Assembly (NCBI GenBank): GCA_905178155.1
Contig: CAJINV010000009.1
Location: forward strand, 2,643,373-2,707,372
DNA from: Amoebophrya sp. A120
Taxonomy: Eukaryota > Protista > Dinoflagellata
Direction of reading: 5' to 3'
Length of the DNA: 64,000 bases
Position numbers and translations under genes: made by a program. Below are positions 15,201 through 49,700 of this stretch, piece by piece (position 1 is the stretch's first letter; each line of letters starts with the position of its first letter). The notes under the pieces are model-generated. The model did not search any database. It worked only from the letters and a program-made list of their open reading frames with translations, and was not told the DNA's origin.

Positions 15201-18200
15201 TCGTCGCTGACACCGGCCCACTGCTGGGCGAAGCGAAGTCGTTTCCGAAGCTCGTCTGACTCCCACGCCCACTGAAATTCGCGAAGTGCCCGGTCAAACT
15301 CCCGTCCGAAGCGTTGGGGGAGGAATCGGGCAAGTTTCCGAAATCCGGACTGGAAAGCATCAAACCTCCAGAGCCGGTACCAGTTTGATGTTCCTGCTGC
15401 TCGGTTGTAGTCATGCGGCCCGGGATAGAAATTTTCAACGGGTCAACGACGTTTGGGCTGGACGAGAACGACTCGTGATCTTTGGACAGAATCCCCTTTG
15501 GAAACAGCGGTCGCACCTGCTGGGCATGTGTACTGTCCGCTCTGCCGGTCCTAAATCCTATCTGCACATTCGCGGGCGACTGCACACCGTCCTCCGAGAG
15601 CAGGTCATCGAGATCGCCGATACCGGGAATTATAGTAGCACCACCTGCACCACCAGTCGTAAGAACATCCCGACTCTGATTTACCGGACTAGAGGCCAGC
15701 AGACGGAGGTTGGCACGGAGACCTGTGCCTGATGTTCCACCTCCTCCTATCCGGCTGGTTGCATAATTCCCGGCACTTCTCCCAGCTGCTTGGTTCCTGC
15801 CCGGTCTATTCCCTTCGCCGCGCGGATGCTGATTTATGTCATCAACACCATCACCTGTTTCCTGGATGCGCATTTGCATCTCGACGAACTTCTCCTGCGT
15901 CTCCACGTGTTGCCGCATCATTTCCATCCTTTTCGCCTGAGCTTGTTGCTCGTGGGAGAAGGAGCTGAGCATTTTAGTGCCATGTTGAGGTCCACCAGCT
16001 CGCTTCGAGTTCGACCCGCTCGATCTCGAAAAATCCGTCAGCTCCTGCTGCTGGATAATGTTTGCAAAAGCGTTCGCAACTACGCCAGACCGCTGGCTCG
16101 TGCTCCGGTTCCCGGAAAGGGAATATCAAATGTAAAAGTGTCTGGGTCTGGAAGAATGCAACTCGTCATGCCAAATCTGAAGCATGCAAAAATCTGTATG
16201 GCATGACTGCCAAAAGTCGTCCAGTTTTGACCAAGTCGGGAGGGAGTTTCTCATGCAGGATAGGCATGAGAGAGATCGCACAGAATCTGTCATGCTAGGT
16301 CATGCATTCCAGACCTCATGGGTCACGAAAAAGCTGCATGACAAATCGCGCATTCTTCCAGACCCAGACATTTTTACATTTGATAGGGAAGATATGCCAA
16401 CCAAACCGCCGATAGACGTGGGCGTTTGCTCGGTCTTCCTGCTCGATTCCGTCTTCGTCTGGCTTGGCATGGAAATTTCCGACTGCTCTTCCGTCGGGAA
16501 AAGAAGGGAATTGACGTTCAAATTCAAATCGATTTTAGGCGCGGATAACGGCCGAGTTAGTCGTGTAGTAGTAGTTGATCTCATCTTTTTAATGTTCGAT
16601 GGCGCGACGTCGAGAGACACAACTCGCTGTGCCGGCGGTGCAAGAGCTGCGATGTTGTTGGCCGGCGCTTCTCGTTCAATATTTTTCCCGGCATCGAACT
16701 TCGCGTCTGGTAACGGCGACGGGGTAAACGGCTCGAAATCGGATTGCTCTTTTTGAAACTTTCTGACGTCCTGCCAGGCAATTGGGTCCTGGGATTGATG
16801 CACGAGAGCGGGGGACATTGTAGCTATTTGCGGCTCCGCGTCTGGCTCCTCTTCCTGCCCGTGCTCTTGTTGGCCTAGCACTTGCTCTCCGGGTAGAATG
16901 AACCCTTGCTGCTGCCGCTGTGTAGTTAAAGTTATTGTTTTCTTGCTTCTTGCATCAGAAATAAAACGTTCCTCTTTATTGTAGTAGCTACTTCTAATCA
17001 ACGCCTCCCGCACTGCCGGATCTGTGTGATCGAACGGAGCGTCGTGACGGGCGATGCCGATATGTTCTTGCGATGGACCTCCGACACCACCACCTTCCTC
17101 GTCCAAATTGTTGAAGGGCCGGATAATGTTATCCCAAGAAAAAACTGTTTCACTGTGATGGTTTTATTGCAAGATCTGCATCACAAGTTTGCTACACATG
17201 ACACAGAAAAGTTGTCATGCGCGTTTTCCAAGGGAAAACACGCCTAAAAATCCGCTGTGTTCTTGCAGGTGTAGCAAGACAAACACCTTGGTGCTTCGTT
17301 CTCTGCATCACAGGTTCACAGTGAAGCAGTTTTTTCTTGCGATAAATGTAGTCTTTGTCCGAATCAAAATCCTCCATGTTCGTCCTTTTCCGTATCCAGG
17401 AAAAAACGCCCATCCCCATCCAATTTGTCATGCACAGCATGCATGAAGTCCACTATTTGCCATGCAAAAAATGGATGGGGATGGGTGTTTTTTCCTGGAT
17501 ATCCCGCTGCCTCGTACTACTGTTTGCGTTTCCCTCCGCAGCTGCTCCCGCCTGCTGCGGCCCCTTGCGGTTGTCGTACTGCCCGATCTTGTTCCACAAA
17601 CCTTGGATAAAGTCGTTTGGATGGGTTATCAAGGATACCGCTCCAGACCAAACTACGTCGTACCAATCCAAAGGGATCTCTGGGCCGGATTTTACCGATT
17701 TAGAATTTGAGGGTCTTGAACTCGATTTGTCGTGGGGAGGATCTTCGGGGGCCTCGTCCCCTACAGAGGCCGACGCATCGAAAGTTCTTTTCCTTTCAGG
17801 CAACATGGGAGCTGTTTGGCTCGCGCCGACCCCATAGTTTTTCGTAGTCGTGGTCCCTGTAGAGGTTGTGAAGTCGTGCTGTGTGGAGGTCATAATTTGC
17901 AGCCGAGAGGAGGACTGTTCCTCTCCTTTAGCACCTCGTGAAGACCGATTCTGATCTTCCAAATTCGCTGTGTAATTCAACGCCTGTTGAATCATCGATC
18001 CAGACGGGACGCCACCGGGCAAATCGTCACAATCATCTGCTTCTGCCCCCTTGTTCGTGTTTACATTTACAACAGCTTCCGGTACTGCAGACGAGGATGA
18101 AAAGTGTTTCTCCTCGGTTAACGGCCCTTGATCCGAATTCTGGCTGTTCAGCGAGCTTCTACTGGTGTTACTGGACTCGTGCGGGGAGAAGGAGAAGGCT

Positions 18201-21200
18201 GGGTCCGATGCGCTTCTGTGCTGCACGACTTGCACAACGTTCTCCGTGCTGGAATTCTGGGAGGAGGAATTTGTTTTCGGCGTATTCTTCTGCTGGACCT
18301 GGGTCAACATCGTGTTAGACTTGTTAGAACTTGCTTGTTTCTTTCTGCTTGCAATTGCTGCCGTCCCGGAGGTGCCTTGTTGGCTACCGCCACGACCACC
18401 TCCGCCGGCTCCTGGTGCCTCGTCTGCAAATGAAGATTCTCCTCCAGCAACATCTTGTGCTGCTGTTGTAACACCAGAAGCCACAATGTCCTCCTCCTGA
18501 TCTTTCTTTGCCTCCTTCCATTTGCACCTCCGTCCGAACAGAATCAGCACCAGCTCGTGCTCACACCCCGCTTGCTGCTTATGCAATACAAATTTCTCGT
18601 ACACGACGTACAAAATGCATCACACATAATTTCGCCATACTCAGAATGTAACACTTGTCATGCTGATTAGCATCGCAGGCAAGGTCTGTTATGCAGACTC
18701 CATATTTTTTGTATACTGTATGAGAGCGTTTGAGCAATTAATTTTTCCGCAATTCAAAAAATCGCGTATTTAAGATTAAGGTATCTGTCAATCCCCACGG
18801 TATGATCGTTTTTGCAGTCGCCGTTGCGGAGTGGAAAAGCTGGTGTCTCCGGTGCCGGTTTTGGGTGAGTTATGCAATGAGATAAATAGGGAGATTCCAA
18901 CTTGAGCTAGCTAATTTAGGTATCTTGGTATGTATGTTTTTGATGTAGATATTGATGGCGTTAGGATACGCATTTAGATTAGACCAAGCGACGACCCTTT
19001 GAAGACCGGCGATTTGACGTCGCGGGGCCCCGTGCACGGGGCCCCGCGACGTCTTGGCCACCGTCTTACCTGGCTACCTAGGAAGCAACCTCCAGAAGGC
19101 AGCTGAATAGCGGCCGCAGTTCTTGATTTGTCATGCATAAATACTTCTATCTTAATTAGCTAGCTCAAGTTGGAATCTCCCGTATTTGACAACCATACCT
19201 TACAGCCGGATCACCAAACAACCGGATCATCAGGCTTCGACATCACCAGCGTGGCGGCGGCGATAAAAGAAACAAAATGGAATGATTTTATTACAAAAAT
19301 CTATTTTTTGAATTGCGGAAAAATTAATTGCTCAAACGCTCTCATATACTGTACGTCGTGCACAACGGGAAATTTACTGTGGATACTTCTGCCGTTCGAT
19401 GCACTCTTTAAGAAACCGCAGCATGTGGTGCAGGATCATCTCACCAGAGGAACTGTATTCGTAGATCTCTTTCGAGACTTCGATGAACATGTAGATCTCC
19501 GCGGCGGTCGACCGGAAGGAGATTTCTGTCTTCTCCGTCACAAGACCGGTTAGCAACTTCGGCGGTTTGGGCTTCGGCTTCGCTGCTATTCCATCTTGAT
19601 GCGACTCGGTCGGTGATGGTTGAGCGGACACGATATTGGACGAGGTCCCAGCGGGAGATGAAGCTGCCACCACGGCGGCGGCTCCCCCGACGACCGGGGA
19701 TGGCATCGGTGGCGTTCCACCGCCAGCTGAAGTGGTTGATCCCTGCCCGGATTTTGACTTCGAAGCAAGGGCTGCTCTGATTCCAGTCTGAAGATCCTTC
19801 GTGTTAGAAGTACTACCATCATTTTGCGCAGAATTATCTTCCACGTCCATGATCGCCACACTTGTCGCCAGCGCGTGCTCCACCAAGTAATCGGACTCTG
19901 GCGGGTTAAATCCCTGGTAGAAAACCGGTGCGATACCGGATTGCTGGAGATCTAGTAGCGATTTCTGGTAGTACCAAATATCGCGCTTGCTCATCTGCCG
20001 TCTCGCAGTTAGCGTGATTTCCAAATTCTCCAGAGTGTACTTCTTCTCCTCCTCCAATGGGATCAAAATCAGTTCCAACGAGTTTTCTGACAGTTGTAAA
20101 GTGGAGAGATTTAGATTCAGGAAGTTCTGTTGCTGTTGCTGCATAAACTCAATGTCCTTCGCATTCGGGTTGGCAACATTCGTTTGCGAAAACATCTATG
20201 CATTGCAAATATGCCTGGGTCTGGAATAAACTTGTGATGCTAATTTATGAATTGTGGGGTCACTATAATAGGCAGCCACGCATGAGAAGTTTCTGGGCCC
20301 CCTTGTGTTCTTTCGCTTTCCGCATGACAAACTACATTTTTGCATGACACGCAAGAGGCTCTTTTCGTGCTCACGCATTACAGCTTCACTAGTGATGAGA
20401 GACACGCATGACAAATAACTTGCATTCTTCCAGAACCAGACACATTTGCATTGGATAACATCCCTCCCGGCGCGCCCGACGGGTTCACGACAATCGTGTT
20501 TGCGCCGGGGATATCAAATGCAAATATGTCTGGGTCTGGAAAGTTGCAACTTGTGATGCTGCCTTTGGATTCTACACAGAATCTGTTTCGCGTGACCAGC
20601 AAAAGAGGTCCGCTTTTTGTTACACGGAGAGGGCATTTCTCATGCAGTACAGGCATCACAAAGCCCTCAACAAATCTGTGATGCTAGGGCATGCATCAGA
20701 GACATCAGAGGTCATGCTAAATATGCATTACAAGCGCTGTTTTTTTTCCAGACCCAGACATTTTTGCATTTAATAGGGGAGTTGGTTGACAATCCCCTGC
20801 GGCCCGATCGCGATTGAGCTGTACCTGGCGTTTAGACTGTATCAAGTGCAAAAGTGTCTGGGTCTGGAAGATTCTGAGACTTGTCACGCACGTTTTGCAT
20901 GAGCCTTGATGTCTGTGACGCATGCCCTAGCATCACAGATTTTTTGAGGGCTTCTTGATGCCTATTCCGCATGACAAATGCCCTCTCGTCCGCGGAGCAA
21001 AAAACGCGTTCCCTTTGCTGCTCATGCAATACAGATTTTTTTGGAATCCAAATGCAGCATCACAAGTTGCCTTCTTCCAGACCCAGACACTTTTGCATTT
21101 GATAGACTGTCGTAGCTGGCATTGTTTTTGTTGTCCGGATTCCCGAGGTCCTGGATCCGGTTCTTTTTCATGACCTGCTCGAAATTCCGATACAAAAATT

Positions 21201-24200
21201 TCCAATCAAAAGCCGCCTGGGCGAGTTTGGTGTCGATGGAAATCGCCGCGTTGTTGTTGGACTTAGGGAAGGAGGTGATGAGATTGAAGTTCGCGTAGGA
21301 ATAGGGGTCGGTGGAAATCAAGACGGTGGATGGTTGGTTTTGTTGTGATGTAGAAGTCAAAGAGGTCGAAGCGGCTCCAGAGCCCAGGCCCCCGCTAGTG
21401 CTGGAAGAAGTTGCACCACCGGTAGTTGTACTACCAAAAGAACTGCTCGGCGGCCCGCCTCCAGGACCACCATATCCCACGAAAAAAGTGTTACAGTTAC
21501 ACATTTGTAGCCAATTCAGCAACTGCATGAGAGAGAAAACTTGTAATGCAGAAATCCTACGGGAAAACAGCTATGAAACGAGGCTCCTATGCATATCCGG
21601 CATGACAGAGCTTGTCTGTCTTGCTTGGCCTGCAACACAATGCGTAACTGTAACACTTTTTTCTCACGATACACCACCGTACAAATTCACTGCCGAGTCC
21701 ACCATCATTTCTGGTTCTGCGCGGATATGGAAGCGTCAGGATTGAAATCGTCAAAGTTGAAATAATTTCTCATGCATAAAATGCAAGGCATGAAGTGCCT
21801 GTCTTGCCGGGATGGCAAGTGAGGCCGACTGTCAGCCTGTTTAGGGTTTGAAATAGAGCTGCTAAAGTAGCATGGCAAAAGCCTTCTTCTATCCCTAAAC
21901 AGCATGACAAACCGGATTTAGACGGTGCCGAAATTTGTCATGCGCCGCTTGGAAATTGGGCTTCCAACTGGTATCGATTTTCTGCATTACAACTTACTTC
22001 AATTTTGACAAAGATTTCAAACCTGACACTTCCATAGCGGAACAGCAAATAGTTGTCCCGGTCTGCTTCAAACTGCAAGCGGTACAACCGTATGCATTGC
22101 AAAAGTATCGTAAGTACAAATTGCATTACAAATCTTATCAGAAAGAAAAATGGACTTTGTAATGCTAATTCAGGTAAAAAGGTAGGTTTGTCATGCAAGA
22201 TTGCAATTAGTACGAGTACGATACTTTTGCACAGGATAAACCGACCGACTTTCAACGATCGGATTCTGGTTTTGTCAAAAAGCAGGGACTGGCGGTACCC
22301 GGTTGGTAGGGTAGAGTCTTTAGAAACGCTCGGACCTCCAGAGGCTGCAGAAGAAAGCAGAGCGCCGGCGCTGCTAGTGGTAGCCGAGGACGAAGCAACA
22401 TTCGCGGCAGCGGAAGCCGTATCAAATGTAAAAGTGTCTGGGTCTGGAAGAATGCAAGATTTGTGACGCAGCTTTTCCATGACCCATGAGGTCTGGAATG
22501 CGAGACCCAGCGTGACAGATTTTTTGAGGTCTCTATCATGCCTTTCCTGCATGAGAAACTCCCTCTCAACTTGGTCAAAAGCGGACAGCTTTTGGTACTC
22601 ACGCAACACATCATCATCATGTAGTGGACACCCGCTCCCAGCGCCACAGGTCAAGGATCCCCTCCCCGGGGGGTGGGCGAGGAAGCACTTTCGGCGACCT
22701 CAACATACAAAAGCCGAGCGCTACCACGGCAAGTCGCCCCAATACAAGTGCCAACCAGTCGGGAGCTACCCACCACACCTGATCAGCACAACCCGGCCAG
22801 CTAGCCGAGCGCGACAGCCCAACATACAGAACGATCCAGGACCCGACCCATAATTTTACGCCATAAGTTTTTGCTCTCACGGAAGAGACGACGTACCCCT
22901 TTGGGCTAAGGGGCGAGACTCTCCCTTAAGCCGCAACCCCACCCGGACAGGGGAGGCTGGACCATTTGTGCCTTACCTGCGGCACGGACGAAAAAGGCAA
23001 GGGCCGCGGACCACAGACGTCAAACCATTGGCCAGTTGTTTGTCACTGCTGACTGGCAACCCACCTGGGGCACAGCGACAACTTAAAGGTTTAGTTTGTG
23101 CGTGGCAGTCTTAGTGCAACTACTTGACTTATTCTGCAACAGAAGCAAAGGGGGAGAGGGGGGGCGGGGGTCTTACGCCAGAGTCGCGACGGGACTTACC
23201 TGGACGTAGGGTGCCTGGCAATCCCCTACTAACCCCATAACCCTTGCGCGCCCGTAACTTCGTCTTCGTCAGCACCGCGGCCAGGAATTTCGACACACCA
23301 TTTCCAGCATGGCGGCCGCCGTTTGTACGAAGTCCCACACGCAACTCCGTGGCCAGAAAGTCCGATACGAATCTTTCACGCCATGTCCATGGCGGCGGTA
23401 AGACTGCGCGTCGTGCCTGGTTAGCTCGTGATAGTCGTGCTGGAGTTGCTCGTGGTAGTCGTGCTGGTGTGCTGCAGTTGCTCGTGGTAGTCGTGCTGGT
23501 GTGCTGCAGTTGCTCGTGGTAGTCGTGCTGGTGTGCTGCAGTTGCTCGCGGTAGTCGTGCTGGTTAGCGTGACAGTCGAGGACGAAGTTGGAAATTGTGG
23601 CTCTCGAAACCGTCGAAAGTGTTTCAGAAAACGTGTAAATCTCGACCGGTCGGGCGCGCTTCCTTTTGGTTTGGCGTCGTAGTACTCGATGCCGCTGCAC
23701 TCGCAAAAGTTGCCTTCAGTCCTAGTCTAGCATGACAAGTTGGACACTGCAAGTTAGCGAAGTTTGTACATGTACAGGAAATTTACCTTGCATAAGGGGC
23801 ACTCCGTGTCTATGATCGCGATAGGGAGGAGCGTCGCGCAGAAGAGTTTCACGAAGCCCGTTCACTTCATGACCTCCAAATCGTAGCCGTAGGATTGAAA
23901 TTCTTGCAGCAGCGACTGTGAATTTCGGGCGCGGAAGGGCGTTTGCTTGTTAAACCGCCAGGTCCACACCGAGAAAATCCAGAGATTGGCGATCGCTTGC
24001 GCCAGGACGACTAGGATGGCGCCCAACGCACGGCTGTCTTCCTTCGGAATCTGCATCTTGGGCAAAACGCCGTCCTCTTCCCCGATCAGGAAGAGAGGGA
24101 GGACGCAGGCCATGTTGAGGAATGAATGTTGGAGCTAAAAAGGATAGAAGTGCACAACTTCAAGAACTTCTAGGTTGTAGACCGAATAGCGCCGGTGTCT

Positions 24201-25392
24201 GACCAAATGTAGATGGTCCTACTTGGAAAAAAATGAAAAAAAAAAACAATGGAAGCTACACAACAGACGACACTATCACTAACCTTGCTCCTCGTGCGCC
24301 TGTCTCATTAGTGTTGAGGCAGAAAATTATAAATCACAATGCTTGAGCCAAAAATAAATCACACAGATTTTTTTTGCATCATTCGGATTTAGCATGACAA
24401 GTTCTAATCTTCCAGACCCAGACATTTTTACATTTGATAAGCCGATGACGGGCCGCCCTGTGCGCCGCCGGAGGAGGTGGAAGAGGAGGCAGCTGCACCT
24501 GGAGTTGTTTGTAATGCAAGAATACTATAAAGGTCTTACTGCAAACTTGTCGCGCTCATCATGCTGATCGATGATGCTCAAGCTCATGCAAAGAAATACA
24601 TATAAGGCATCGCGTTTAATTGGTCTAATGGTAATGCGCTCCTCAGCGGCAGGAGAATTACAATTATCTCTGTTCTTGTTTCGTACCTGCCCCACCAGTA
24701 ACACCTCTTCCTCCCTTGCCGTCCTTTTTCGACGCCGGGTCGTCTTCATCATCTTCTGCTATCCGGTCTTTCGCGTAAACCTCGTGCGTGGTAAATTTGT
24801 GCGCCCGCGGGGTCGCAGCTTCTTCCCCCGTGGGCCCGGCAATTTGTTTCGCCGCCGCGGTTTGGTTGAACCGAGCGGGGTATGCATTGCAAATACGTCC
24901 GGGTCTGGAAACTTGTAATGCTGGGTTGGGAATGGTGAATGCTCTGCAATGCACAGCCAAGCACGAGAGGTTGTATCTGCGCTGCTTAGTGCTGTTGCAG
25001 ATTCTGCATGGCAGGCTGCGTTTTTGCATCACAAGGAAAAGAGTATCTTCTTGGACGCGCATCACAAGTTCTTCAGTCATGCCAGACAAGCATGACAAAC
25101 CTCGCATCCACCTTCCAGACCACCCAGACATAGATATTTGCATTTCATACGGCGATGGTGATTTGAGGACGGTTGAAACGACCCATAATTCCTTATGAAG
25201 TACTACTGGATATGCCAAATGAATGTAGTTCGTTGATGTTCTTGGTCGGTGACCTACGGGGGGGGTCAGGAAGCAAGGTATAGGAAACAAATACTGCTGG
25301 AATCCTTACATAGAAATACGAATTACAAGCAGTGCCACGGCAAGAGAAGTGAAAGACTTGCTGTGACGCTGACGCGTAACATCAATACCCAT
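1..25392 (-). CDS. DEPDC5: DEPDC5/IML1/SEA1-like GATOR1 subunit; multi-exon gene (32 introners plus canonical introns 24499-24686 and 25254-25388), 3' end beyond window start
   Basis: Joined exons give LVTEKTEISFRSTAAEIYMFIEVSKEIYEY..HELVLILFGR, LLEALNLALDAFEHHALDRSLTITGQGIFVLS..LICFRDRPLHRVPL and QLFEDLVGTRLVCGMQL, recognisable IML1/DEPDC5 motifs in the expected order. Frame checked across several junctions (981, 10800, 13421, 13696, 22420, 24499). Start ATG at 25392 is inferred. Confidence 0.8.
981..1118. mobile_element. Introner family B
   Basis: TAT..TGCAAAAGTATCG TIR; DR CTTCG both sides; removal gives APK|KKPSIL in frame. Confidence 0.9.
1652..1890. mobile_element. Introner family C
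   Basis: TATGGGGTTCTCAA/TTGAGAACGCCATA; DR TGGCA. Confidence 0.9.
1960..2216. mobile_element. Introner family A (left end degenerate, AGT)
   Basis: TIR; DR CAGAA. Confidence 0.85.
2253..2510. mobile_element. Introner family A
   Basis: TIR; DR CCCGT. Confidence 0.9.
3166..3488. mobile_element. Introner family I
   Basis: GGAAAAATCCCCCCTCCCCATA TIR; DR AGGAG/AGTAG. Confidence 0.85.
3714..3859. mobile_element. Introner family B
   Basis: TIR; DR ATTCG. Confidence 0.9.
3903..4150. mobile_element. Introner family C
   Basis: TIR; DR TGCTC. Confidence 0.9.
4222..4484. mobile_element. Introner family A
   Basis: TIR; DR TGCGC. Confidence 0.9.
5091..5396. mobile_element. Introner family J (single copy here)
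   Basis: TATGAAGGCCTCAG/CTGAGGCTTTCATA TIR; DR GCAGC/ACAGC. Confidence 0.85.
5714..5862. mobile_element. Introner family B
   Basis: TIR; DR CCTCC. Confidence 0.9.
5924..6208. mobile_element. Introner family F
   Basis: TATCCTGTGTAAAAACGTCCCCACCCCA TIR; DR TGCGA. Confidence 0.9.
6812..6961. mobile_element. Introner family B
   Basis: TIR; DR TCAGT. Confidence 0.9.
7369..7577. mobile_element. Introner family E
   Basis: GAAAAAACTGTTTCACTGTGA TIR; DR CAGCC. Confidence 0.9.
8265..8522. mobile_element. Introner family A
   Basis: TIR; DR TTGCT. Confidence 0.9.
9806..10014. mobile_element. Introner family E
   Basis: TIR; DR TTGTT. Confidence 0.9.
10127..10276. mobile_element. Introner family B
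   Basis: TIR; DR TCACA. Confidence 0.9.
10800..11034. mobile_element. Introner family C
   Basis: TIR; DR TCCAC; frame restored (VRV|EQHQAG). Confidence 0.9.
13421..13575. mobile_element. Introner family B
   Basis: TIR; DR GTTGT. Confidence 0.9.
13696..13804. mobile_element. Introner family D
   Basis: TATCCAGGAAAAAACACCCATCCCCATCCA TIR; DR CCGAC. Confidence 0.9.
16124..16385. mobile_element. Introner family A (opposite orientation to 2253 copy)
   Basis: TIR; DR GGGAA. Confidence 0.9.
17130..17344. mobile_element. Introner family E
   Basis: TIR; DR AATGT. Confidence 0.9.
17393..17501. mobile_element. Introner family D
   Basis: TIR; DR TTCCG/TCCCG. Confidence 0.88.
18580..19385. mobile_element. 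Introner family K carrying a nested element
   Basis: TATGCAATACAAATTTC/GAAATTTACTGTGGATA; DR CTGCT/CTTCT. Confidence 0.85.
18719..19346. mobile_element. Nested TAT..ATA TIR element (44-bp perfect TIR)
   Basis: TATGAGAGCGTTTGAGCAATTAATTTTTCCGCAATTCAAAAAAT at both ends (inverted); DR TACTG. Confidence 0.9.
20197..20457. mobile_element. Introner family A
   Basis: TIR; DR ACATC. Confidence 0.9.
20512..20775. mobile_element. Introner family A
   Basis: TIR; DR GGGGA. Confidence 0.9.
20840..21104. mobile_element. Introner family A
   Basis: TIR; DR GACTG. Confidence 0.9.
21473..21671. mobile_element. Introner family E
   Basis: TIR; DR CACCA. Confidence 0.9.
21726..22036. mobile_element. Introner family G
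   Basis: TATGGAAGCGTCAGGATTGAAATCGTCAAAGTTGAA TIR; DR GCGGA. Confidence 0.9.
22091..22238. mobile_element. Introner family B
   Basis: TIR; DR AACCG. Confidence 0.9.
23425..23563. repeat. 32-bp tandem repeat (GTTGCTCGTGGTAGTCGTGCTGGTGTGCTGCA), about 3 full plus partial copies
   Basis: Direct reading. Confidence 0.85.
23862..24113 (-). CDS. Possible 83-aa ORF with one hydrophobic segment inside the retroposed insert
   Basis: ATG-initiated ORF downstream of the relict SL; no recognisable family. Confidence 0.3.
   Translation of the reverse strand: MACVLPLFLIGEEDGVLPKMQIPKEDSRALGAILVVLAQAIANLWIFSVWTWRFNKQTPFRARNSQSLLQEFQSYGYDLEVMK
24342..24355 (-). other. Relict dinoflagellate spliced-leader (DinoSL) 3' segment
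   Basis: ATTTTTGGCTCAAG; 12-nt exact match to the 3' end of DinoSL (DCCGTAGCCATTTTGGCTCAAG), at the insertion boundary. Confidence 0.75.
24499..24686 (-). other. Canonical GT-AG intron
   Basis: GCAG|GTACG ... CTCCAG|GTGC; frame preserved. Confidence 0.75.
24881..25149. mobile_element. Introner family A
   Basis: TIR; DR CGGGG/CGGCG. Confidence 0.88.
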
Positions 25393-30485: not shown

Positions 30486-30839
30486 TCACTGTTCGGGCAA
30501 CATCCCTTGCTGTCCGAGCATCACTTGCCGTTCCGGTGGTCCTCGCACAGCGCGCTTCCAGTCAATGTAAGCTTTTCCGGTAAGGCACCCTAGCTCGAAA
30601 GTGGCGAGCCCGTGCAGGCATGCAGATCCAGGTGAGAGGCCGTGGACGTGCTGTGCTTCGTACTGTTGAGACGCTTTGTGCATGGTATAGCATGCACAAG
30701 AACCGCAGCAAACCGCGGCGCTGGCCGCGGCCCCGCAGCACGCCCTCCCCGAATTCTCCGCGAATTCCTCCGCGTATTTTTTCGGGGTCCAATGTGCTGC
30801 AGCTGCACGGCAGCTGCAGCTGCCGTGCAGCTGCAGCAA
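30486..30839 (-). CDS. Small Cys-rich hypothetical protein (start uncertain)
   Basis: GC-rich ORF (CCGAAASAAVCCGSCACY) in AT-richer flanks; no ATG identified. Confidence 0.35.
   Translation of the reverse strand: MLQLHGSCSCRAAAAHWTPKKYAEEFAENSGRACCGAAASAAVCCGSCACYTMHKASQQYEAQHVHGLSPGSACLHGLATFELGCLTGKAYIDWKRAVRGPPERQVMLGQQGMLPEQ
30795..30838. repeat. Perfect 44-bp palindrome
   Basis: TGCTGCAGCTGCACGGCAGCTGCAGCTGCCGTGCAGCTGCAGCA equals its reverse complement. Confidence 0.9.
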
Positions 30840-31755: not shown

Positions 31756-33844
31756 CTAGTCATCTTTTTCTTCCACTTCTTGCAAACAGACATGTGCGGC
31801 TACCAAACTGCCTAAATCTTCGCACTTCACCCGGTCCTCATAGTTCAATTTTTTCCCCGGGTTCAAAATTGTTTTTTTCGTCTGCTTATGAATTGCAAAA
31901 GCAACGTACCAAATATAGCCGCCGGGGCGGGGGTAGTGAGGTCGTGGGCGTTTTCTTGCCGGCCATCGCCTTGGCCGTGGCTTTGCTTTTTATGGGCTCA
32001 CCATACCGCCGCGAGTAACGTTAGGCCGCACGGTATGGCGGCCGCTTCATAAACATCGCAAATTTTGGCAAATTCGCGAAATTCCTTTCCGAAGGCCAGC
32101 CCCCATGCTATGGGGCCGATCCGGGTGCCACAGGGGGCGCCCAAAAAGCGAAGAAAAATTGGGCCCGTAGCATGCGGATTGGCTTTGCGCGTCTGGGGCG
32201 CTTTTTCTTTTTCGCGTTTTTATTTTTCACGCCGGCGCTTTTTGCAAAGCTTCCCAGGCTCTAAAGCCGGCGAAAAGGCGGCCGCTTTCGCGGCCGCCCA
32301 AAATGCTCCGAAATCGCGGCCGCGCCATGCTGTTTCGCTGTTCTGATTTTGGGCGCGTTTTTTGCGCGCCCCTTTTTGGGCGCCCCAAATCGCCAGAAAC
32401 CAAGGCGGTGGGCGCCTCAAAAGGGCGCCCCTTTTGCCGGCTCCCCTGCGTCGTTTTATCAAGTGCGAATCGATAGTTTTCGACCGGGCTTGTTTGCTAT
32501 CAAAGCCCCGGCCGCTTGATAAGTGAAAACTTTTTATGTCCAAAAACGCTTCCACCCGCTTGAAAACTGGCGGCCGTTTTGCTGTCTGGCTGGCAAAAAA
32601 ACTCCCCGGTTAGAACCGTTCGGTGACCTCACTACATACTAGTATAAATGCATTACAAATTTCCTCAGCATGAAAAATGAAATTTGTAAATGCGGATTTG
32701 CCTTAAGGAAAGGACTTGTATGTAATGCAAGCCGTGTATTTATACGAGTGCGATACTTTTGCACAGGATACTGCTTTATTCCTTTGTCGAGCTGGATCGC
32801 CTCCTCGCGGCAAATGAGAAAGGGCAAGGGTCGTGCAGCAGCTCCTTCGCCAGAACTTTTATGTTCTTCGGCAGAGCTGCAGCTGTGAGGAGCATTTACA
32901 TTCTTCAAGACGTTCCGTACCCGTATCCACTGCAAAAGTATCGTACTCGTATGAATTGCAGTCATGCATGACAGATCTGGCTTCGTCCTAGCGAATTCAG
33001 CATTAGAAATTCCATTTTTGCTTCTGGAAAAATTTGTAATGCTATTTGTACTAGCACGATACTTTTGCAATGCATAAACCGCCAGCCAGTGCAAATCCGC
33101 TCGACTTGCCTGCTATGCTGCGCAAATGTCTCGCACTCGTACAAATGCATTACAAATTTCCTCAGCATGAGAAATAAAATTTGTAATGCGGGTTTACCTT
33201 TAATGCATGACTGCGATACGAGTACGATACTTTTGCACAGGATACCTCCCCGCATTCTCCCCGTCGCTTCCTGAGCTGATCGCGATTCCGCACGGTCTGT
33301 TGCGAAGTGTCGGTTCCTCATGTAGTTCATGATCTCCGTTGTAATCATTTGTCATGCTATCTTGAAACATGTGGTAGTAGTACTGATCGAAAAACTCTTT
33401 CATCATTCCCGACATTGCTGCCAAATTCTCCGGACACACGAAGACGAAGCCGGCGGCTGATTTCAGTAACTCCGTTGCTGGTGGGGGAAGCATGATCTTC
33501 GGCGGGTTCTTTCGCGAGGAGGAAGATGACGCGGATGCAGCTGGAGCGGAAGGCGCAGGTCCCGGCGCCGGGGTACTTGTTCTCAGTTGTGCCGCGCCGG
33601 ACATCGTCTTGAGCTGCAGCAGTCTTTCACAACAGATCCGTTCGACGTGGATATTGCTTTCCTCGTTCTTTTTTGTGGCCCTGTAGTCCTTATCGTGCAT
33701 CATGACGCCTACCGTCCGTCTCGCGCCGCTCGCCACCGCACAGGACATTTGCGCGGCCAGGTTCGTACGGGAGTGGTAGAGGACCAGGATACGCCTTGCT
33801 GCTGACGACGCAGCTCCTGTAGGGGTTGCGCCAGATGAAGCCAT
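31756..33844 (-). CDS. Flavodoxin-fold NAD(P)H-dependent FMN reductase (WrbA-like); 3 introners
   Basis: ILVLYHSRTNLAAQM, GFVFVCPENLAAMSGMMKEFFD, SGSDGENAG|RQVERICTGWR, KCEDLG motifs; stop TAG at 31756. Confidence 0.8.
31887..32770. mobile_element. Introner family B with ~730-bp GC-rich nested insert (about 31910-32638)
   Basis: TIR halves at 31887 and 32770; DR CTGCT. Confidence 0.82.
32924..33076. mobile_element. Introner family B
   Basis: TIR; DR ACCCG/AACCG. Confidence 0.88.
33114..33244. mobile_element. Introner family B
   Basis: TIR; DR CCTGC/CCTCC. Confidence 0.88.
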
Positions 33845-36409: not shown

Positions 36410-39400
36410 CTATCTCGACGCAACGCGGTCGTTTGTTCTTCTACTTAGTCTTCCCATGGTCACGTGCATGTTCGCAATGTTTATCTTATGTCTGGAAAAT
36501 CCGCGCAGACTCCCGTCCGCAATGGCGCCAAAGCGTAGAGCTGAGGTGCGGACCTTCGGAAATTGGAAAATAGGCGATTTCTCGAGGGTCTCGTGTATCT
36601 CTGTTGAAGCAGAAGCGGTAGCGCCGTCAGGTGTAAGTGTAGTTGCTCTTGGGCTTGGCTCTTGATTTTTCACATTCACTGATGCGTTGATGCCATTCGG
36701 CGTCCAAACAGTAGCTGCTTGCCTTTGCGTCTCAAGTGGCTGTGTGGACGCCTCGACGTCTGGTATGGTAGTATCGGGGGCTCGTCCAGATAGCACCTCT
36801 AAACCTCCTCTGTCCCCGAGGCTCAAAACGGTAACCGCAGGAGAACTACTCGCACTCGCTGCTACTGGGGACGAGGCTGTTGTATCTGTATTGCGGCCCG
36901 CTAATACTTTTGGTTGAAAAAAATCTCCGATGCCGGAAACCTTTCGCGAAGATGGCACTAGTTGTCCCACCTGTTCTATTTGTTTGAGCTTCGCGTCGCT
37001 GCTTTTGGGAGCGGATTCTTGTTGTGGAGATGTAGTCGTGGCCCCGATGGTCTCGTCCTGCCCTGAAACGCTACCCGTTTTCGCTTTCTTGAAACACTCA
37101 TTCAGATACAGCCACGATGTGGTTTGGCCTGCTTGAAACGGACCACCAACATCTTCTCTGCCAGTTGCTGCACCAGCAGCAGCCACAGCCGCGGCCGGCT
37201 GAACATTTACGACGCCAAACCGCAGTGGTAAAAATATTTGCTTGACTACTTGTTCATCTTGTTCACGCGTTTTCATGTTCCCTTGACCTTGTGCAGCTGG
37301 TCCTCCACCTGGGTCGACCTCGACAAGGCACTATCAAATGTAAAAATGTCTGGGTCTGGAAGAATGCAAGATTTGTGACGCAGGTTTTTCATGGCCCATG
37401 AGGTCTGGAATGCGAGACCCAGCATGACAGATTCTTTGAGGTCTCTATCATGCCTTTCCTGCATGAGAAACCCCCCCTCAACTTGGTCAAAAGTGGACAG
37501 CTTTTGGCACTCACGCAACACAGATTTTTGCATCATTTAGATTTAGCATGACAAGTTCTAATCTTCCAGACCCAGACATTTTTACGGTTGCTAGGCACTC
37601 TATCGTGTTGGCCTGCTTCTGTTTGTCCACAACTCGAAGTAAGAGAACGATTTCAGTCGTGATTCTAGATCGGTAGTGGCTGTTAGTGCTAGCGGGACCA
37701 CGAAGAGGCACATCACCAGCATGATCTATGTGCACTTTGTCCTCACAGAGCCAAACCGTGAACCCCTCGATATTGCTGTACACCGCGTTCTTCCCACTGT
37801 TTTCTATCGTGAGGAAAAATCCCCCCTCCCCATACCGAAGCGACCTACTTCTGAAAATTTGCGATGCTGATCTGTGGCCACAAATCGTCTCTGTATTGCA
37901 AGAAGGCCAATCCAGAGACCCCGCCGCATTATACAGACGGTTTGTGATGCTATGGAGCCTACAGAGTACACATTTGCCGTGCTATGCGCCTACGAGAAAA
38001 CCCCTCTAGGTAGGCTTGGTATGGGCCTGCAGTCCCATACTGCAAGACAGACCTGATTTATTTGTGTACGCAATAAATCCAGCATGAGAAACTTCCTTTT
38101 GATATGGGGAGGGGGAATTTTTCCTCTCGATATATTCGGAAAAAACTTCTCTTTTCGACAACACGATGGAGCAGGTCCGGGCCGGCTTCGCGTCCGTGAG
38201 TGTGGATTTCACCAGTTCCGAGTTCATCTGCGTCTTTTGCTGCGGGGTTAGGTGGTTTTGAGCCTGAACGACCACTGCTGGACCGCCGTGGTCGTGGTTT
38301 TTTTCGGTTCCTCCAGCTCCTTGTGAGATGGCTTGATTTTTTTCCTCTCCTGGATTATACTTTGCTTTTTCACTCGTTCTACTTCCCATATAATCCTTCT
38401 GCAGCATCGTCCGCGCGCCGGTTTTGCCGTCGGTGACCACCTGCACTAAATTCACCTCAGCGTTGCGGTGGTAGAGACCCATGTTTATTCCGTCTTCAGT
38501 AGTAGAAGAGCTAGAGCTTGTTTTTGAGCTACTTCTTCTTGCCGCATTGATATTTTGGTACTCGACGATCCGTTGCTTGAGTCTCTCTACGAAAGAACTC
38601 GATCCAGAGGAATTCCTGGGTGGAGCATCAGCACTTCCTTCCACTGCATGAGCTGCTGCTGATGCAGTCGGCTTCCCCCACGCGACTTCCTCGACCACAG
38701 TATGAGAGTGCACAACTCCCCCTCCCCCTCATTTGTAATGCAAAATACCCAATCCACCCTTTGCCTCTTGGCACTGTTTGCATGACAAGTTCTGGTCGCC
38801 CAAATAGCACTAGACTCAAGTGAAAATCTGTCATGCAAAACCGGCACTCTTGCTGATGCTTGTATTGCCGTTCATGCTACACAAATGAGGGGGAGGGGGA
38901 GTTGTGCACTGTTATACACAGCATCGGAAAACGTGAACTCCGGACTGGAAGAAAACTTCTCAACCGTCAAAACCGCTTCAAAATGTTCTAATCGGTCCTC
39001 ATCGGAGTATGGATTGCAAATATGTCTGGGTCCGGAAACTTGTAATGCTAAAAGTGAATGATAGACGCACACGCACTGCAATACGCAGCTATCGCGATGC
39101 ATGAACTAAAATAATTTGGTTGCCATGTCTTACGTGTTCCGCATGGCGAACTGCGTTTTTGCATGACAGGCAAGAGGACTTTGTCGTGCCTATACAACGC
39201 AGATTCTCGAGTCATGCCAGACAAGCCTGACAAACTTGCATTCTTCCAGACCCAGACATTTTTGCTTTTGATACAGAGGTCCCATTGTCAATGTCAAACT
39301 CGACCACGTCGTGATTTGTTGTTCCCTCTCCTTGCGTTGTTTGTGTTTCCAAACCAAGGATTTCATCGCTGTTTCTTTCAGCAACATTAAACGTCGGTGG

Positions 39401-43794: not shown

Positions 43795-46733
43795 TATTTT
43801 GGTTTGTCGCAATTATCGTTTCAACATGAGCTTCACACATGAAGGAGCACAGCACCCACTCTGAATGAAAAAGAAAAATCTTTTTATCGGGGTTCTTCAT
43901 CGTTCACACACAGCCGAATACCATGCTAAATTTATGGGAGCCAATGCCAAGCTCAATACTTAAAAAAATTCAAGGCAAATCAATGCGGCAAGCTTTGCAG
44001 AACCAGAAGCGAAAAGTTGAAGTGTAGTAACTGTAACGGTAACCGCATCTAGTAAGAAGTTTTAGTTTATAGATACGTAGATCCTCCATCTGCTTGATGA
44101 TCTTCCCCTTCTCTTGTTCTGGAGAAAAAAAAATGATGCTGGTCGTCCGTGTTGATCTGGGTTCCGATGCGGATCATATTACGCAAAAGCCGCTGAAAAA
44201 ATCTCAAACGATTACCTCCACTATAAACGAAACACAAAAGCTCACGCAAGAGATAGAAAAAGCGGTCATGTGCGGACTGCAAGAAGCCAAGCCCTCCTTG
44301 TTAGAAGGTACATCGCCCCGAGACAACTACAAGAAAAGATCACGACCGACATACGCATAGTATCCAGATGCAACTAATGAAGCGCAAGCTACGTGAAAAA
44401 GAAAGCAGGTCCACGAACGCCGCCTGTTTGCAGTAAGTTGCAACAGGACACACGCACAAAAAAAGCGAAAGCAATATAGGGAGATGAGAAGACGCACTCG
44501 CTCACTCTCATGCGAGAGGTGCAGAAGGCACGCCATCCCCGAGCCCACCGCGGGTGGGTGGACAAACGTGGCTGATTTCTCATTTTATTAATAATGAGCG
44601 ACAACGCGCCGTGAAAATGGCACATCGGTCCTTGTTGCGCAGGAGAGCGAGGACAACGACAGACGGCTGGCACGGGGGCGCCTGGCACACAGGGGTGCTT
44701 GCGTTTGTTGCCGGCCGCCGGGCTGTACGAATGGGCCTGATTAAAAGGCCGACGAGTGGGGCGCCGAAAGTCTGCAACCAAAAGCCAGGAAGGTCAGGCA
44801 ACCTTGCGCGCCAGCCTGCCTCCCTCCGCGGCGCCCCGAACTTGCAAGCAAGCGACCCGAAGCAAGGAAGAAACCCGAGACCGGGGCGACCTGCGCCCCA
44901 TGCGCGTGCCTGCTTACGAGGCTGCCAAGCAGTGAAGGGCGGGCAAAGGCTGCCCACCCACACAGACACCACCCAAAAAGGGCAACGGCGCGCCCCCTTC
45001 CCCAAGGAGTGGAACCCAACGCGGCCGCCCCCTGGATCGGCGGGCGGCGCCGCCTGCGTTTCACGCTGGCGCGCGCCACCCAGCGGCGGGCGGGCCTGCC
45101 AGCCTACGGCCAGACTGGCGCCGGGCTCTGCTACGGACAACCAACCCAAGGCGCCGCGGGCGGGCGCGGGCAGGGAGCAACCGGGGCGCGCTCCTGCCTT
45201 GCGGAGTCTGTGCGAACAGAACAGGACGAGGCGCCGCCTGCGCTTTCCTTATTCTGCAAGCAGGCCGCCGAGCTTGCTCGAGCTCCTCCCTGGCCTCCTC
45301 CTTCGCCACAAGGCCGGGGCGAGGCGGCGCAAACTGCCCGGCGGGAAGCTTGGCGTGCGGGGCAATGGCGCCGCGCATCCGGCCGGAGGCGGGGGAAACT
45401 CCCGAACGGTGGGCCCTGGTAAGTGCCGCGCCCTGGCCGGCCGCTTTGGCGCCCTGCCTTCTTGCCAATCATGCAGGCCGGGATCTTTTTCCCCCCCCCG
45501 TCCCCGTCGCGATACCCGCTGCGGGCGGCGCCGGGCTACTTCTGCGGCCACGCAGCATTCTGGGCGGCGCCAGCGGACGGGCAGAGTGAGGGCGCCCCAC
45601 CCGGCCGGGCAGCCCGCGGGGGCTCCCAAATCAGAACGCCGGCGCGCCTCTTTCCCAGGCACCACCAGAACGCGGCCGAAACGAGACACCTGCGCACCAC
45701 TGGCGTCCTGGAGTGCTCCGCAGCCTTGAGCCGCTGCGCCGCAGCGCGCTCAAAGTGTTCGACAGCTGCACCAAGCGCAGCCCGCTCCGCCCGCGGGCTT
45801 CGTAGAGGGATCGAACTCCGCTCCCGTCTCGGCTTGTCCGAACGTCCGCGCGCACCGGTCGAATAGCTCGGCCATCACCCCGGACGTGAGGCGCCCCCGC
45901 GTCAGCTTTCCGGAGGACATGGCGCGCACAATTACCGGGCGCCGCCGAGTGCATGGCCTAAATGCGGACCCGTCTGGTGGCTGGAGTCTCAGGCGGGGGG
46001 TCCGTCTCGTTGTGCTTCTTTGCTGAGGACCAAAGTCTCACCGGTGAGTCGTAGCCCACTCATCTAATGTGAAGTTGAAGAAGAACACAAATGTAATTAT
46101 ATCAAGCAGTAACGACAGGGACCTAACCCAACATGCTTCGTTGCGCTTCCTATACTGCTTCACAATCGTTTTTGCTTCTCGTATGATTCTTCATCAACTG
46201 CCAGTCCAGTACTTAGAGCCAAAATTTCCCGTGTCTAAGAATCGAAGAGAGAGTTGTAGCTTGCGTTTCTTTTGCAGAAATCTTAAAGATCATACTCATA
46301 GGCCTTAAGGCTTTTCATCACTTATCACTTTTTCTTTTTGCACTTGATCGCTGTGTAACATGTACTTTTTTATCTTCGCAAAAACGACATCGACATCGCT
46401 AGTACTAAGCTTGTTTACGCAAAGCACCAGGGTAACTTTGGATCCACGTGTTCGACGATAAACGACGCCAGCGTGTCTATCTGGCACTAAACCGCGGTCT
46501 ACTTGCACTTATTTGCTGCGTACTTCGCTAAAAAAAAGAGAGATCAGTGTGCATGAAATTTTGTTTTGAAAAAAAACCGGGCTACTCGTCACTAGCTGCA
46601 TTTCAAACCTAGCTGCTAAACCAAAGACTGTTGTTACTGTTTATAGACACAACAAGCACAAGCTACTTCGTCGCAAAAGCTCACACTTAAGGATGATGCC
46701 AGTACCGGTTTCACTAAACCGAAAACCACCTCC

Positions 46734-49700
46734 TCAATCCTGATGCCGTTTCAACGGCACCGCATCTACTTCCCCAGCAGCAGAGACAGCCGCTTCGCCT
46801 CCTCCACCAGTTTCCCTTTCTCCACTGCCCCGCTGCTGTTGCTCTCTACTCGACGACGTCGCAGACGGTCCATTGGTAGAGCGAGGCTGCGCTCCTGCTG
46901 CGCCAGCAGCTGTATTTTGCGCAGTCGCTGTTCCTGTTGTAGTGGTTGTTGTACTTGTTCCACCAGCAAGCGGCTGAGCAACGGGATTTGCACTGCTCCT
47001 TTCCTCTCCACCAACATCGTTCCTTCCCGCACTACTTCTCAAGCAGTCCTGAAACATGATCTTCGGCAACACCTTCTGCTTAAAAAACGCGATCAGATTC
47101 TCCCGACTGGTCGTGTTCAAATCTTTAGTATTTCCATGCTTCTCTTTGTCTTTCTCCCCAGCATGTTGATCACTGTTGCCGGTTTTGTTCCCTCTCTGAT
47201 TACTATTTTGTTGAAAGAACGCGGCAGCCCCGGGGAAGTTTTTGAAATTTTGCATTCCGAAGTTCTGCACCCGGTCGAGCATGAGTTTTTTGTACTTGTT
47301 CAGTTTCGTATCCTGGAAAAAACAGCCATCCCCATTCAGTTTTTGCATGACAAATTAATAGTGGATTTTATGCATGTTTTGCATGACAAATTGGATGGGG
47401 ATGGGTGTTTTTTCCTGGATATTTCGACGTCGCTTTCTTGTCTTTTTTGTTCAAGTCATCATTCCTCCCACCGTTCATCGCGTTTTCCAACTGCTGGTCT
47501 TGCTGTTGAACGAACGTGCGGTTGAGTATCCACGAAAAACAAAAAAACACCCATAGGCATTCCCATCGATTTTCTGCATGGCAGACACGAGCACTAGTGC
47601 ACGTTTTGCATGACAAATTGAATGGGGCGGATCATGGGTCTTTTTCTGTGGGTATTGAGCCACAAATTCTCCAAACACGTTTGCTGCACTTCGGGAAGAA
47701 ACTGACCCAACACCGTGAATAGGGGGAGGACCACCACGTCGATGAACCCGAGCTGGCATTTCGGTGTGGAAGTGGACTCCCGATCGAAAAACATCGACAC
47801 CGGAAGATTCTTGTCTCGTTCGATGTCTCCCTGTCGGAAATATTCTTCCATCGTCCGGCTCACGTGAGTGAAATACAACTCCGATTTTCTCGTTGAGTTG
47901 CTGATGTCCGCCGCGTGAAGCAAAATGTTCAACAAAACCTGTTTATCCTCCGCCGACCGCGGGTCCGGAAAGGTTTCCCTCGCGGAAGCCAACTTCGTCT
48001 TAAAACTGCTCAGCTCCGCTATCCTGAGTAAAAACGTCCCCACGCCAGAGTTGTCATGCAGATTTTTTTTTTTTTGATTGGGCCCCGCTCTGTTGACGCA
48101 TATAAATTCATCACTAAAACTAGGAGGCCGGTGTGCGTTACTTAACATGTGAAGCAGTTCTACGAATTCACCTGCCTGCCGCAGCAGGTGCAGGTCAAAC
48201 AGGGCCGACACCTTTCACACAGTTAAGCAGTGCGCGCGTATGCGTGCATTTTTCATCTTGTTTTGATATTCTTACTATCTGCTCTTGTCCTCTGCTCCAG
48301 CACATTGTACTGCGCGTCTTGTTCTCGCCTCGCTTCCGTTTTCCCCCTCCTCTCCCGCGTGCGTGTCCACCGGGGCCTAGTCCCCCCCGTCCTGTAGCTC
48401 GAGCGGCTCGCCGATGTCCCTCGATTGCATCCGCGCGGGGCTCGGGCTCGTGGCTGTTTTCCGTCATATCTCCTTATCATGACTCCCCACTTTGCCGCGC
48501 TGACTCCGCGCCCGCTTTCGTTTTTCATGATGTTTTCTTCTAAGCTTCGTGTCTGTTAGCGTGGGTTAGTCTGTAGAGTAAAAGTAAAGTAAAGCGATGC
48601 GGAAATCTTCAAGAGGTTACGCCTGATTTAAACTCGCGCTAGCATCTTGTTCCTATTTCTAATCCCCGTCTTTTCCCCACAACCCACGACCAGCCTCTGC
48701 TGGAAAAAAAGAAGTTCCCTGGTGTGTTTTTTAATAGTCGCAGCGGGTGGGGGGAGACCGCATTGGTCTCCCCCCGCACGCTGCTAGTCTGTTGTAGTAT
48801 CTGCTTTGTATTTCTACATGAGCTAGTGCTGTTGTGACGCATCATTTGAATTGCTTTACGAAGTGCTCTGAAAAAACGAAGTGCTCTGAAAAAACGAAGT
48901 GCTCTGAAAAAAACGAAGTGCTCTGAAAAAAAACGAAGTGCTCATTGTTTTACTCAACAGCATAACAATGGATTATGAATCTGAAATTTTTCGCACGAAG
49001 AAGCGGAAGCCGTCACCAGAAGCGCAGCTAATAAGTAACGACAGGAACATTTGTAATGCGCATCGCGAGGAGAGGCCTTTTTAGTCGTGTTTTGGAATTT
49101 GTAATGCTGTTTTAAACAGGATGAGCAGATGGATTCCTGATGCAGCTGGCCTTGCGAACCTGCACTACACTACGAGTTGCAACTTGTGATGCGTGACCCC
49201 CAAAAGTTCTAGGCTTGTGTTGCAAAATCCCCATCTTGACTCTGGTGTGGGGATGCTTTTACTCAGGATATCCGCGAAGTGCGCGCTGGTATCGGTCGCT
49301 AACACCATCTGGATCACGATCTTCCGGGCCTCGGCGTATTGTTTCTCATTCAGTGTCGCGAAGATGTCGTACTCCGGGGAATTTTCCAACATGAGGTAGA
49401 AGGCCGCAGCAACGTGGTGGTTCTCCAGAATCGCGGAATCGTTGTAGCGTAACGCGATCGGGTGTTTCGTCCTGACCAGAAACGCGTTGGACACGCCTGG
49501 ATGTTGGTAATCGTGAATTGCCGCCGCGAACAAGCCGGCTAAAACCTCATGCGGGGACAAAATTGGGTCGATCGAGCTGTTTTGGTTCTGCAGCATCAAG
49601 TTTTTGTCGGTTCCCTGCCCGCCGCCGCCAACGTTAGTCGCGTTCGTGGCCATTTTTGACACAAAGCTGTTTTCCCTCAAGTCCGACATGAAACTTGAAC

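Follow-up and report, generated by a model that had tools for sequence, protein, structure and literature searches.

A long-TIR TAT..ATA element nested in an introner of an IML1/DEPDC5 homologue of Amoebophrya A120

Introners of Amoebophrya A120 have been described as non-canonical introns with inverted ends, composed of TAT, about 7 variable bases and AAA, and with direct repeats of 3–5 nt (Farhat et al. 2021, PMC7789003). In the same account ongoing spread was argued from 64 and 97 identical pairs, and two matters were left open for introners of this type, namely their mode of movement and their splicing without canonical ends. The introner described here fits that account at both ends, its flanking duplication and repeated family included. 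Inside it lies a further element that differs from the described introners: it has no A run, its terminal inverted repeats (TIRs) are perfect over 44 bp as against inverted-repeat motifs of 8–20 nt, and it sits inside another introner. The word "nested" does not occur in the text of the supplement to PMC7789003.

The closest structural class to this inner element is A120 family 38, tabulated by Gozashti et al. 2025 (PMC12130899) as Ginger with "5-bp TSD, TA/TA termini", 5 copies of 808–810 bp, TIRs of 49–53 bp and integrase-like homology; the integrase-like ORF homology was not found in the element studied here. Also tabulated are family 196 (4 copies, 810–811 bp, TIRs of 54–57 bp; supplementary file 8) and family 65 (4 copies, 625–627 bp, TIRs of 42–46 bp). 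Compared by description only, family 65 is near the inner element in size and is annotated differently in termini and target-site duplication (TSD), as Mutator with GG/CC termini and an 8–9-bp TSD. The family table gives no sequences, and the TIR string was absent from the 14 supplementary files of that paper. The TA..TA termini given for Ginger-like elements and IS3EU are found in the TAT..ATA ends of the inner element. In the descriptions consulted, IS3EU usually has a 6-bp TSD (PMC10045372) and Ginger1 one of 4 bp; the 5-bp TSD observed here fits Ginger2 (4–5 bp) and A120 family 38, not IS3EU.

In its TIRs, fixed-length duplication, lack of an ORF, relatives of differing length and insertion into another repeat, the inner element is like miniature (MITE) and other non-autonomous TIR transposons; a MITE in the narrow sense is marked by high copy number, whereas the copy number here is very low. 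As a structure, the composite is an ordinary insertion of one transposon into another, and such elements abound in this genome. Nesting of introners was already described in Micromonas CCMP1545 (PMC3879977), where the elements of this green alga are canonically spliced; in the present case host and inner element belong to different families, and the host intron is non-canonical. Stwintrons of the Hypoxylaceae (PMC8469720) likewise have one intervening sequence within another, with terminal inverted repeats of 45–55 nt and internal symmetry. There, however, the inner intron interrupts a splice signal that the outer one needs, and no duplication is described, whereas here a duplication is present and the host stem is predicted to be unbroken. 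Literature on nested Amoebophrya elements was not found in a search in which most matches were judged by their listing, and supplementary figures (Farhat S19–S25, Gozashti S9) may show such elements; a narrow search for a MITE combining a central palindrome, an internal inverted repeat and a deletion derivative also returned none.

The composite introner and the interrupted gene

The window, i.e. the whole 64-kb stretch of DNA that was analysed, was scanned for TAT..ATA pairs, and the 101 candidates were reduced by hand-picking to 59 nearest-pair elements. The 5-bp duplication agreed at 5/5 positions in 46 of these elements and at 4/5 in 13, counts that are biased because the duplication had been used in the selection. 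Without its insert, the host introner (Table 1) comprises 173 bp, with 139 bp on the left (including one TACTG) and 34 bp on the right, and has AAA at positions 11–13 of both TAT ends. A 147-bp sibling at 58971–59117 aligns to it, and further members of its family were seen as loose ends in DNA contigs.

At positions 11, 12 and 13 of introner ends, A was found in 83, 87 and 102 of 106 cases, respectively. The motif GCAT[GCT]ACA[AG] was present in 52 of 53 simple introners, occurring 141 times in 11,795 bp, or approximately 12-fold over background, as counted in the same introners from which it had been chosen. Both this motif and the A at terminal position 13 are common to unrelated introner families and are candidate splicing or mobilisation signals, a role in splicing being a guess. 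One introner, at 37332–37592, has CTA instead of ATA at its right end and a GGCAC duplication, and lies outside the TAT..ATA catalogue.

Table 1. Coordinates of the composite introner, its parts and the adjoining exons (window positions)
Feature	Position	Strand	Remarks
Downstream exon	17507-18574	-	conserved IML1 segment goes on in frame
Host 5-bp duplication, left copy	18575-18579	+	CTGCT
Host introner	18580-19385	.	TAT..ATA; interrupts IML1/DEPDC5 gene read on minus strand
Target-site duplication of inner element, left copy	18714-18718	+	TACTG
Inner element	18719-19346	.	628 bp, TAT..ATA; non-autonomous TIR element, no coding capacity found
Left TIR	18719-18762	+	44 bp, perfect
Subterminal inverted repeat, left arm	18889-18916	+	28 bp, perfect; 126 bp inside left TIR
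Central palindrome	19016-19053	.	38 bp, perfect; spacers to the subterminal arms 99 and 100 bp
Subterminal inverted repeat, right arm	19154-19181	-	exact reverse complement of 18889-18916; 121 bp inside right TIR
Right TIR	19303-19346	-	44 bp, perfect
Target-site duplication of inner element, right copy	19347-19351	+	TACTG
Host 5-bp duplication, right copy	19386-19390		CTTCT; 4/5 alike to CTGCT
Upstream exon	19386-20195	-	IML1/DEPDC5 (GATOR1 subunit) homologue; Pfam and PDB

All coordinates that the first-pass annotation had given for the TAT..ATA element, its perfect TIRs and its perfect TACTG duplication were confirmed, and the inner inverted repeat and palindrome that it had reported were found to be exact. 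The subterminal repeat can be extended to 34 bp at 94% identity. Together, TIRs, subterminal repeat and palindrome are concentric, with centres at 19032.5, 19035 and 19034.5, respectively. When the 540-bp interior was shuffled 1000 times, no reverse-complement self-match exceeded 16 bp (mean 9.2), compared with 38 bp observed. The 44-bp perfect TIR is an outlier among the TAT..ATA elements of the window; in the other 58 catalogued elements the perfect TIR was at most 15 bp in 57 and 28 bp in one.

Where four nested layers had been proposed, two remain. The subterminal repeat and the palindrome were each considered as a separate nested element and rejected, as both are without TAT ends and without a flanking duplication; they are best read as concentric parts of one inner element. 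Folding back of the element over its whole length was also rejected. Complementarity is weak between its outer spacers (22 of 500 shuffles scored equally well) and absent between its inner ones (317 of 500); with spacers not clearly complementary, the inner element is not a simply decayed fold-back. The sole other palindrome of at least 16 bp in the window, at 30795–30838, is likewise long and perfect (44 bp) and is made of GCAGCTGC units.

The longest stop-free stretch within the inner element is 67 aa, and none of its 12 stop-free pieces matched Pfam above the cut-off (best E 0.19). The element had no match in Rfam or among phage sequences. Neither metagenome nor viral contigs contained a 30-mer of the TIR, and the 38-bp palindrome was likewise absent from metagenome contigs.

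For the upstream exon, PDB matches were to DEPDC5/IML1, and the IML1 domain PF12257 was found (E 1.1e-10) over residues 213–268 of 270, a match that reaches the edge of the element. The downstream exon piece, searched alone, had no PDB or Pfam match. One search for homologous proteins also returned nothing. After removal of the composite with 2 or 5 additional nt the frame is open over 626–627 codons; with 0, 1, 3, 4, 6 or 7 additional nt it contains stops, and when the inner element alone is removed a stop remains in frame. The junction with 5 nt was gapless in 10 of 14 homologues, 1 preferred the junction with 2 nt, and 3 were uninformative. The composite plus 5 bp exactly interrupts a conserved IML1/DEPDC5 segment, and the gapless alignments indicate that element plus 5 corresponds to the pre-insertion state.

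As judged from frame and homology, splicing probably removes the composite, since the rest of the gene is intact. For A120 family 2, 6681 of 9716 introns start N-T and 6598 end A-N, by our own sums from the table of Gozashti et al. 2025 (PMC12130899). By analogy, such ends would place the cut one base outside each TAT..ATA end, i.e. element plus 2, with one added codon. In tblastn searches, homologue P0002 (5340 aa) gave ordered matches on the minus strand from 20078 down to 1197, and homologue P0001 also matched at 21270 and 22186. The IML1/DEPDC5 gene may thus exceed 20 kb (about 1200–22200, minus strand) and hold some 25 introners.

Copies, origin and removal of the inner element

Within the 64-kb window the TIR is present once. 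Further copies were seen in DNA contigs of runs X1 and X2. These runs and X4 come from one sample, possibly the source of the window itself, and are not independent. Contigs of X1 and X2 break within both TIRs. Depth of the interior contigs was 65.8 and 83.7 in X1 (flanks 46 and 43.8) and 50.5 and 44.5 in X2 (flanks 29.4 and 27.4), approximately 1.5–1.9 times that of the flanks, contig depth not being equal to copy number. Single-letter variants in the X1 and X2 contigs at 18952, 18959, 19035, 19235 and 19318 fit a second copy approximately 99% identical to the inner element, which would keep the palindrome except for its central base (C>T at 19035). A foreign flank of 27 letters precedes 18716 in DNA contigs, and record 15 of X2 continues for 26 letters past 19348; these junction contigs hold 30 TIR letters, one short of the threshold for bridging.

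In addition, a 1230-nt contig with flank-like depth starts inside the TIR; it aligns to 18733–18998 (43 differences, 8 gaps) and has further matches at 19037–19073 and from 19156. This contig appears to represent a longer relative of at least 1.23 kb, approximately 83% identical and about twice as long, the extra sequence of which would probably lie in its middle; an autonomous element would probably be longer. Taken together, the contigs suggest about two near-identical genome copies and at least one longer relative, pointing to a handful in all. Dispersed copies with different flanks are thus indicated in this one DNA sample by variant bubbles, two foreign flanks and the longer relative, and the TIR is not single-copy.

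With a near-identical second copy in the contigs, the view that a TAT/ATA element with a 5-bp duplication was recently inserted into an introner is supported, and it is plausible from the sequences that the family moved recently. The first-pass annotation had gone further in calling the system still active, for which no backing was obtained: no empty-site joint (18718 to 19352) was found in contigs of X1, X2 or X4, which drop rare variants. Its suggestion of a deletion derivative of an autonomous element holds insofar as a longer relative exists; no autonomous element was seen, nor any transposase in the window or the relatives, and eight frames from other parts of the window, selected as long or rich in GC, contained no transposase domain.

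We consider it likely that the inner element, as a young non-autonomous DNA transposon of low copy number, entered an older introner and is spliced out passively along with it. A DDE transposase encoded elsewhere would recognise the TAT..ATA ends and make a 5-bp staggered cut; that this enzyme is probably Ginger-like is a guess prompted by A120 family 38. The 628-bp form could have arisen when a longer element lost internal sequence, at a junction that the palindrome may mark; conversely, the long form could stem from insertion into the short one. The 28-bp repeat, lying at a similar distance from each end, may be a subterminal feature, perhaps a transposase-binding site. The insertion may have survived because it fell in sequence that was already being spliced out.

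With regard to removal, the insert lies 34 nt from the 5' end of the host, at the inner edge of its terminal stem. Owing to the duplication, this stem would be restored: folding, a soft prediction at 800 nt, gives 28 end-to-end pairs whether the insert is present or absent. In pre-mRNA the insert would close on itself and leave the host stem intact, so that a composite of approximately 810 nt could be removed in one step. RNA runs X5 to X8 did not cover the inner element or its junctions, and nothing from X10 aligned, outcomes that say nothing about expression or splicing. The first-pass annotation had considered that twintron-like excision may occur. In such a route the inner element would itself be an introner and be cut out first (approximately 630 nt), and a host of 173–176 nt would be spliced thereafter. 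That the inner element shares TAT..ATA ends and a 5-bp duplication with the introners of the window speaks for such a route, as does the very high stability of the closed stem that it forms (z −17.4, as DNA); the element would be a substrate if splicing reads only a TAT..ATA hairpin. Furthermore, the A120 introner lists contain intronic families of 625–811 bp with TIRs of 42–57 bp, according to which long-TIR elements can be spliced (PMC12130899). Against this, the host stem is not broken by the inner element and sequential removal is not required; a twintron is defined by an inner intron that breaks an excision element of the outer one, and no such break is predicted in the terminal stem, the part covered here. 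The inner element also starts with TAT but has TTT at positions 11–13, where introner ends have A, and holds 1 copy of GCAT[GCT]ACA[AG] in 628 bp compared with 7.5 expected from introners (Poisson P 0.005; background 0.6). Since the host stem is predicted to be intact and the inner element is unlike the introners of the window, passive removal with the host intron appears likely, and two-step excision is considered unlikely.

Fixed termini together with a target duplication of constant length are marks of DDE-type transposition. The TAT..ATA elements of the window have both, albeit in a biased catalogue (46 of 59 at 5/5, 13 at 4/5), which argues against spread at the RNA level, by reverse splicing or retroposition, or by hairpin-driven copying without a transposase, the nested symmetry then serving RNA folding. 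Several reports speak for a route of this kind: no transposase was found in A120 by Farhat et al., who were doubtful of transposase mobilisation as a general mechanism (PMC7789003), nested introners in Micromonas were taken as evidence for an RNA-level route (PMC3879977), and symmetric, proliferating stwintrons are known in fungi (PMC8469720). The fungal stwintrons, however, are described as without duplications (PMC8469720), and A120 family 38 combines TA..TA ends and a 5-bp TSD with integrase-like homology (PMC12130899); on balance, such a route seems improbable for the present element. Still further from our expectation is an old fold-back, the arms of which have decayed but for three patches, or an artefact of assembly. 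The concentric arrangement of the three repeats and the weak complementarity of the outer spacers are in keeping with a decayed fold-back; yet complementarity is absent from the inner spacers, and the arms are perfect. Speaking against an artefact are X1 and X2 contigs that tile the element and both flanks with 0–2 differences, and retention of the palindrome but for one base in the second copy counts against both; we regard either as very improbable.

Beyond a young transposon removed passively with its host, a more specific proposal is offered tentatively, as one that we doubt more than we believe. The inner element may be a non-splicing, recently mobile sibling of the TAT..ATA introners, which would share their transposase chemistry but, being without the A run and GCAT[GCT]ACA[AG], would survive only inside introns. 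The TIR and the longer relative would then lead to a Ginger-like transposase, and the missing motifs would be cis-signals for splicing without GT-AG. Without settling how introners move or are spliced, the locus provides a young family with long TIRs by which the transposase might be traced. It also sets up a natural experiment on the splicing rule, namely recognition of the outer stem alone or of any TAT..ATA hairpin.

Other inserts and sequence features of the window

Two GC-rich islands, at 44400–46000 and 56700–57950, stand out in the window (2-kb bins of 63%, open frames of 68–75% GC) and are apparently intergenic; their long frames overlap and had no Pfam matches.

Inserts of 0.6–1.8 kb were found in 4 of 58 host elements, i.e. 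18580–19385, 22420–24439, 31887–32770 and 48020–49270, and introners would thus seem to be places where inserts can land safely although genes are densely packed. The other three inserts (0.7–1.8 kb) are without TAT..ATA ends. That in introner 31887–32770 is a GC-rich sequence of approximately 730 bp (31907–32636), in which one inverted repeat of 11 bp lies close to the ends (31933/32635) and another, perfect over 15 bp, lies further inside (32134–32148/32372–32386); neither TAT..ATA ends nor a 5-bp duplication were found for it, and its size and TIR length are like those listed for A120 families 26 and 71 (721–730 bp, TIRs of 10–11; PMC12130899). The insert in introner 22420–24439 (22611–24360, approximately 1.75 kb) has ACACA flanks and a 32-bp tandem repeat at 23405–23564; two of its frames had no Pfam match above the cut-off, and its first 72 bp recur at 98.6% identity at 50741–50812, inside introner 50682–51005. 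The remaining insert, in introner 48020–49270, spans approximately 980 bp (48061–49037) and has a T run at its start, an 18-bp tandem repeat and a 20-bp hairpin; the T run may be the poly-A tail of the minus strand, and the insert is possibly a retroposed element.
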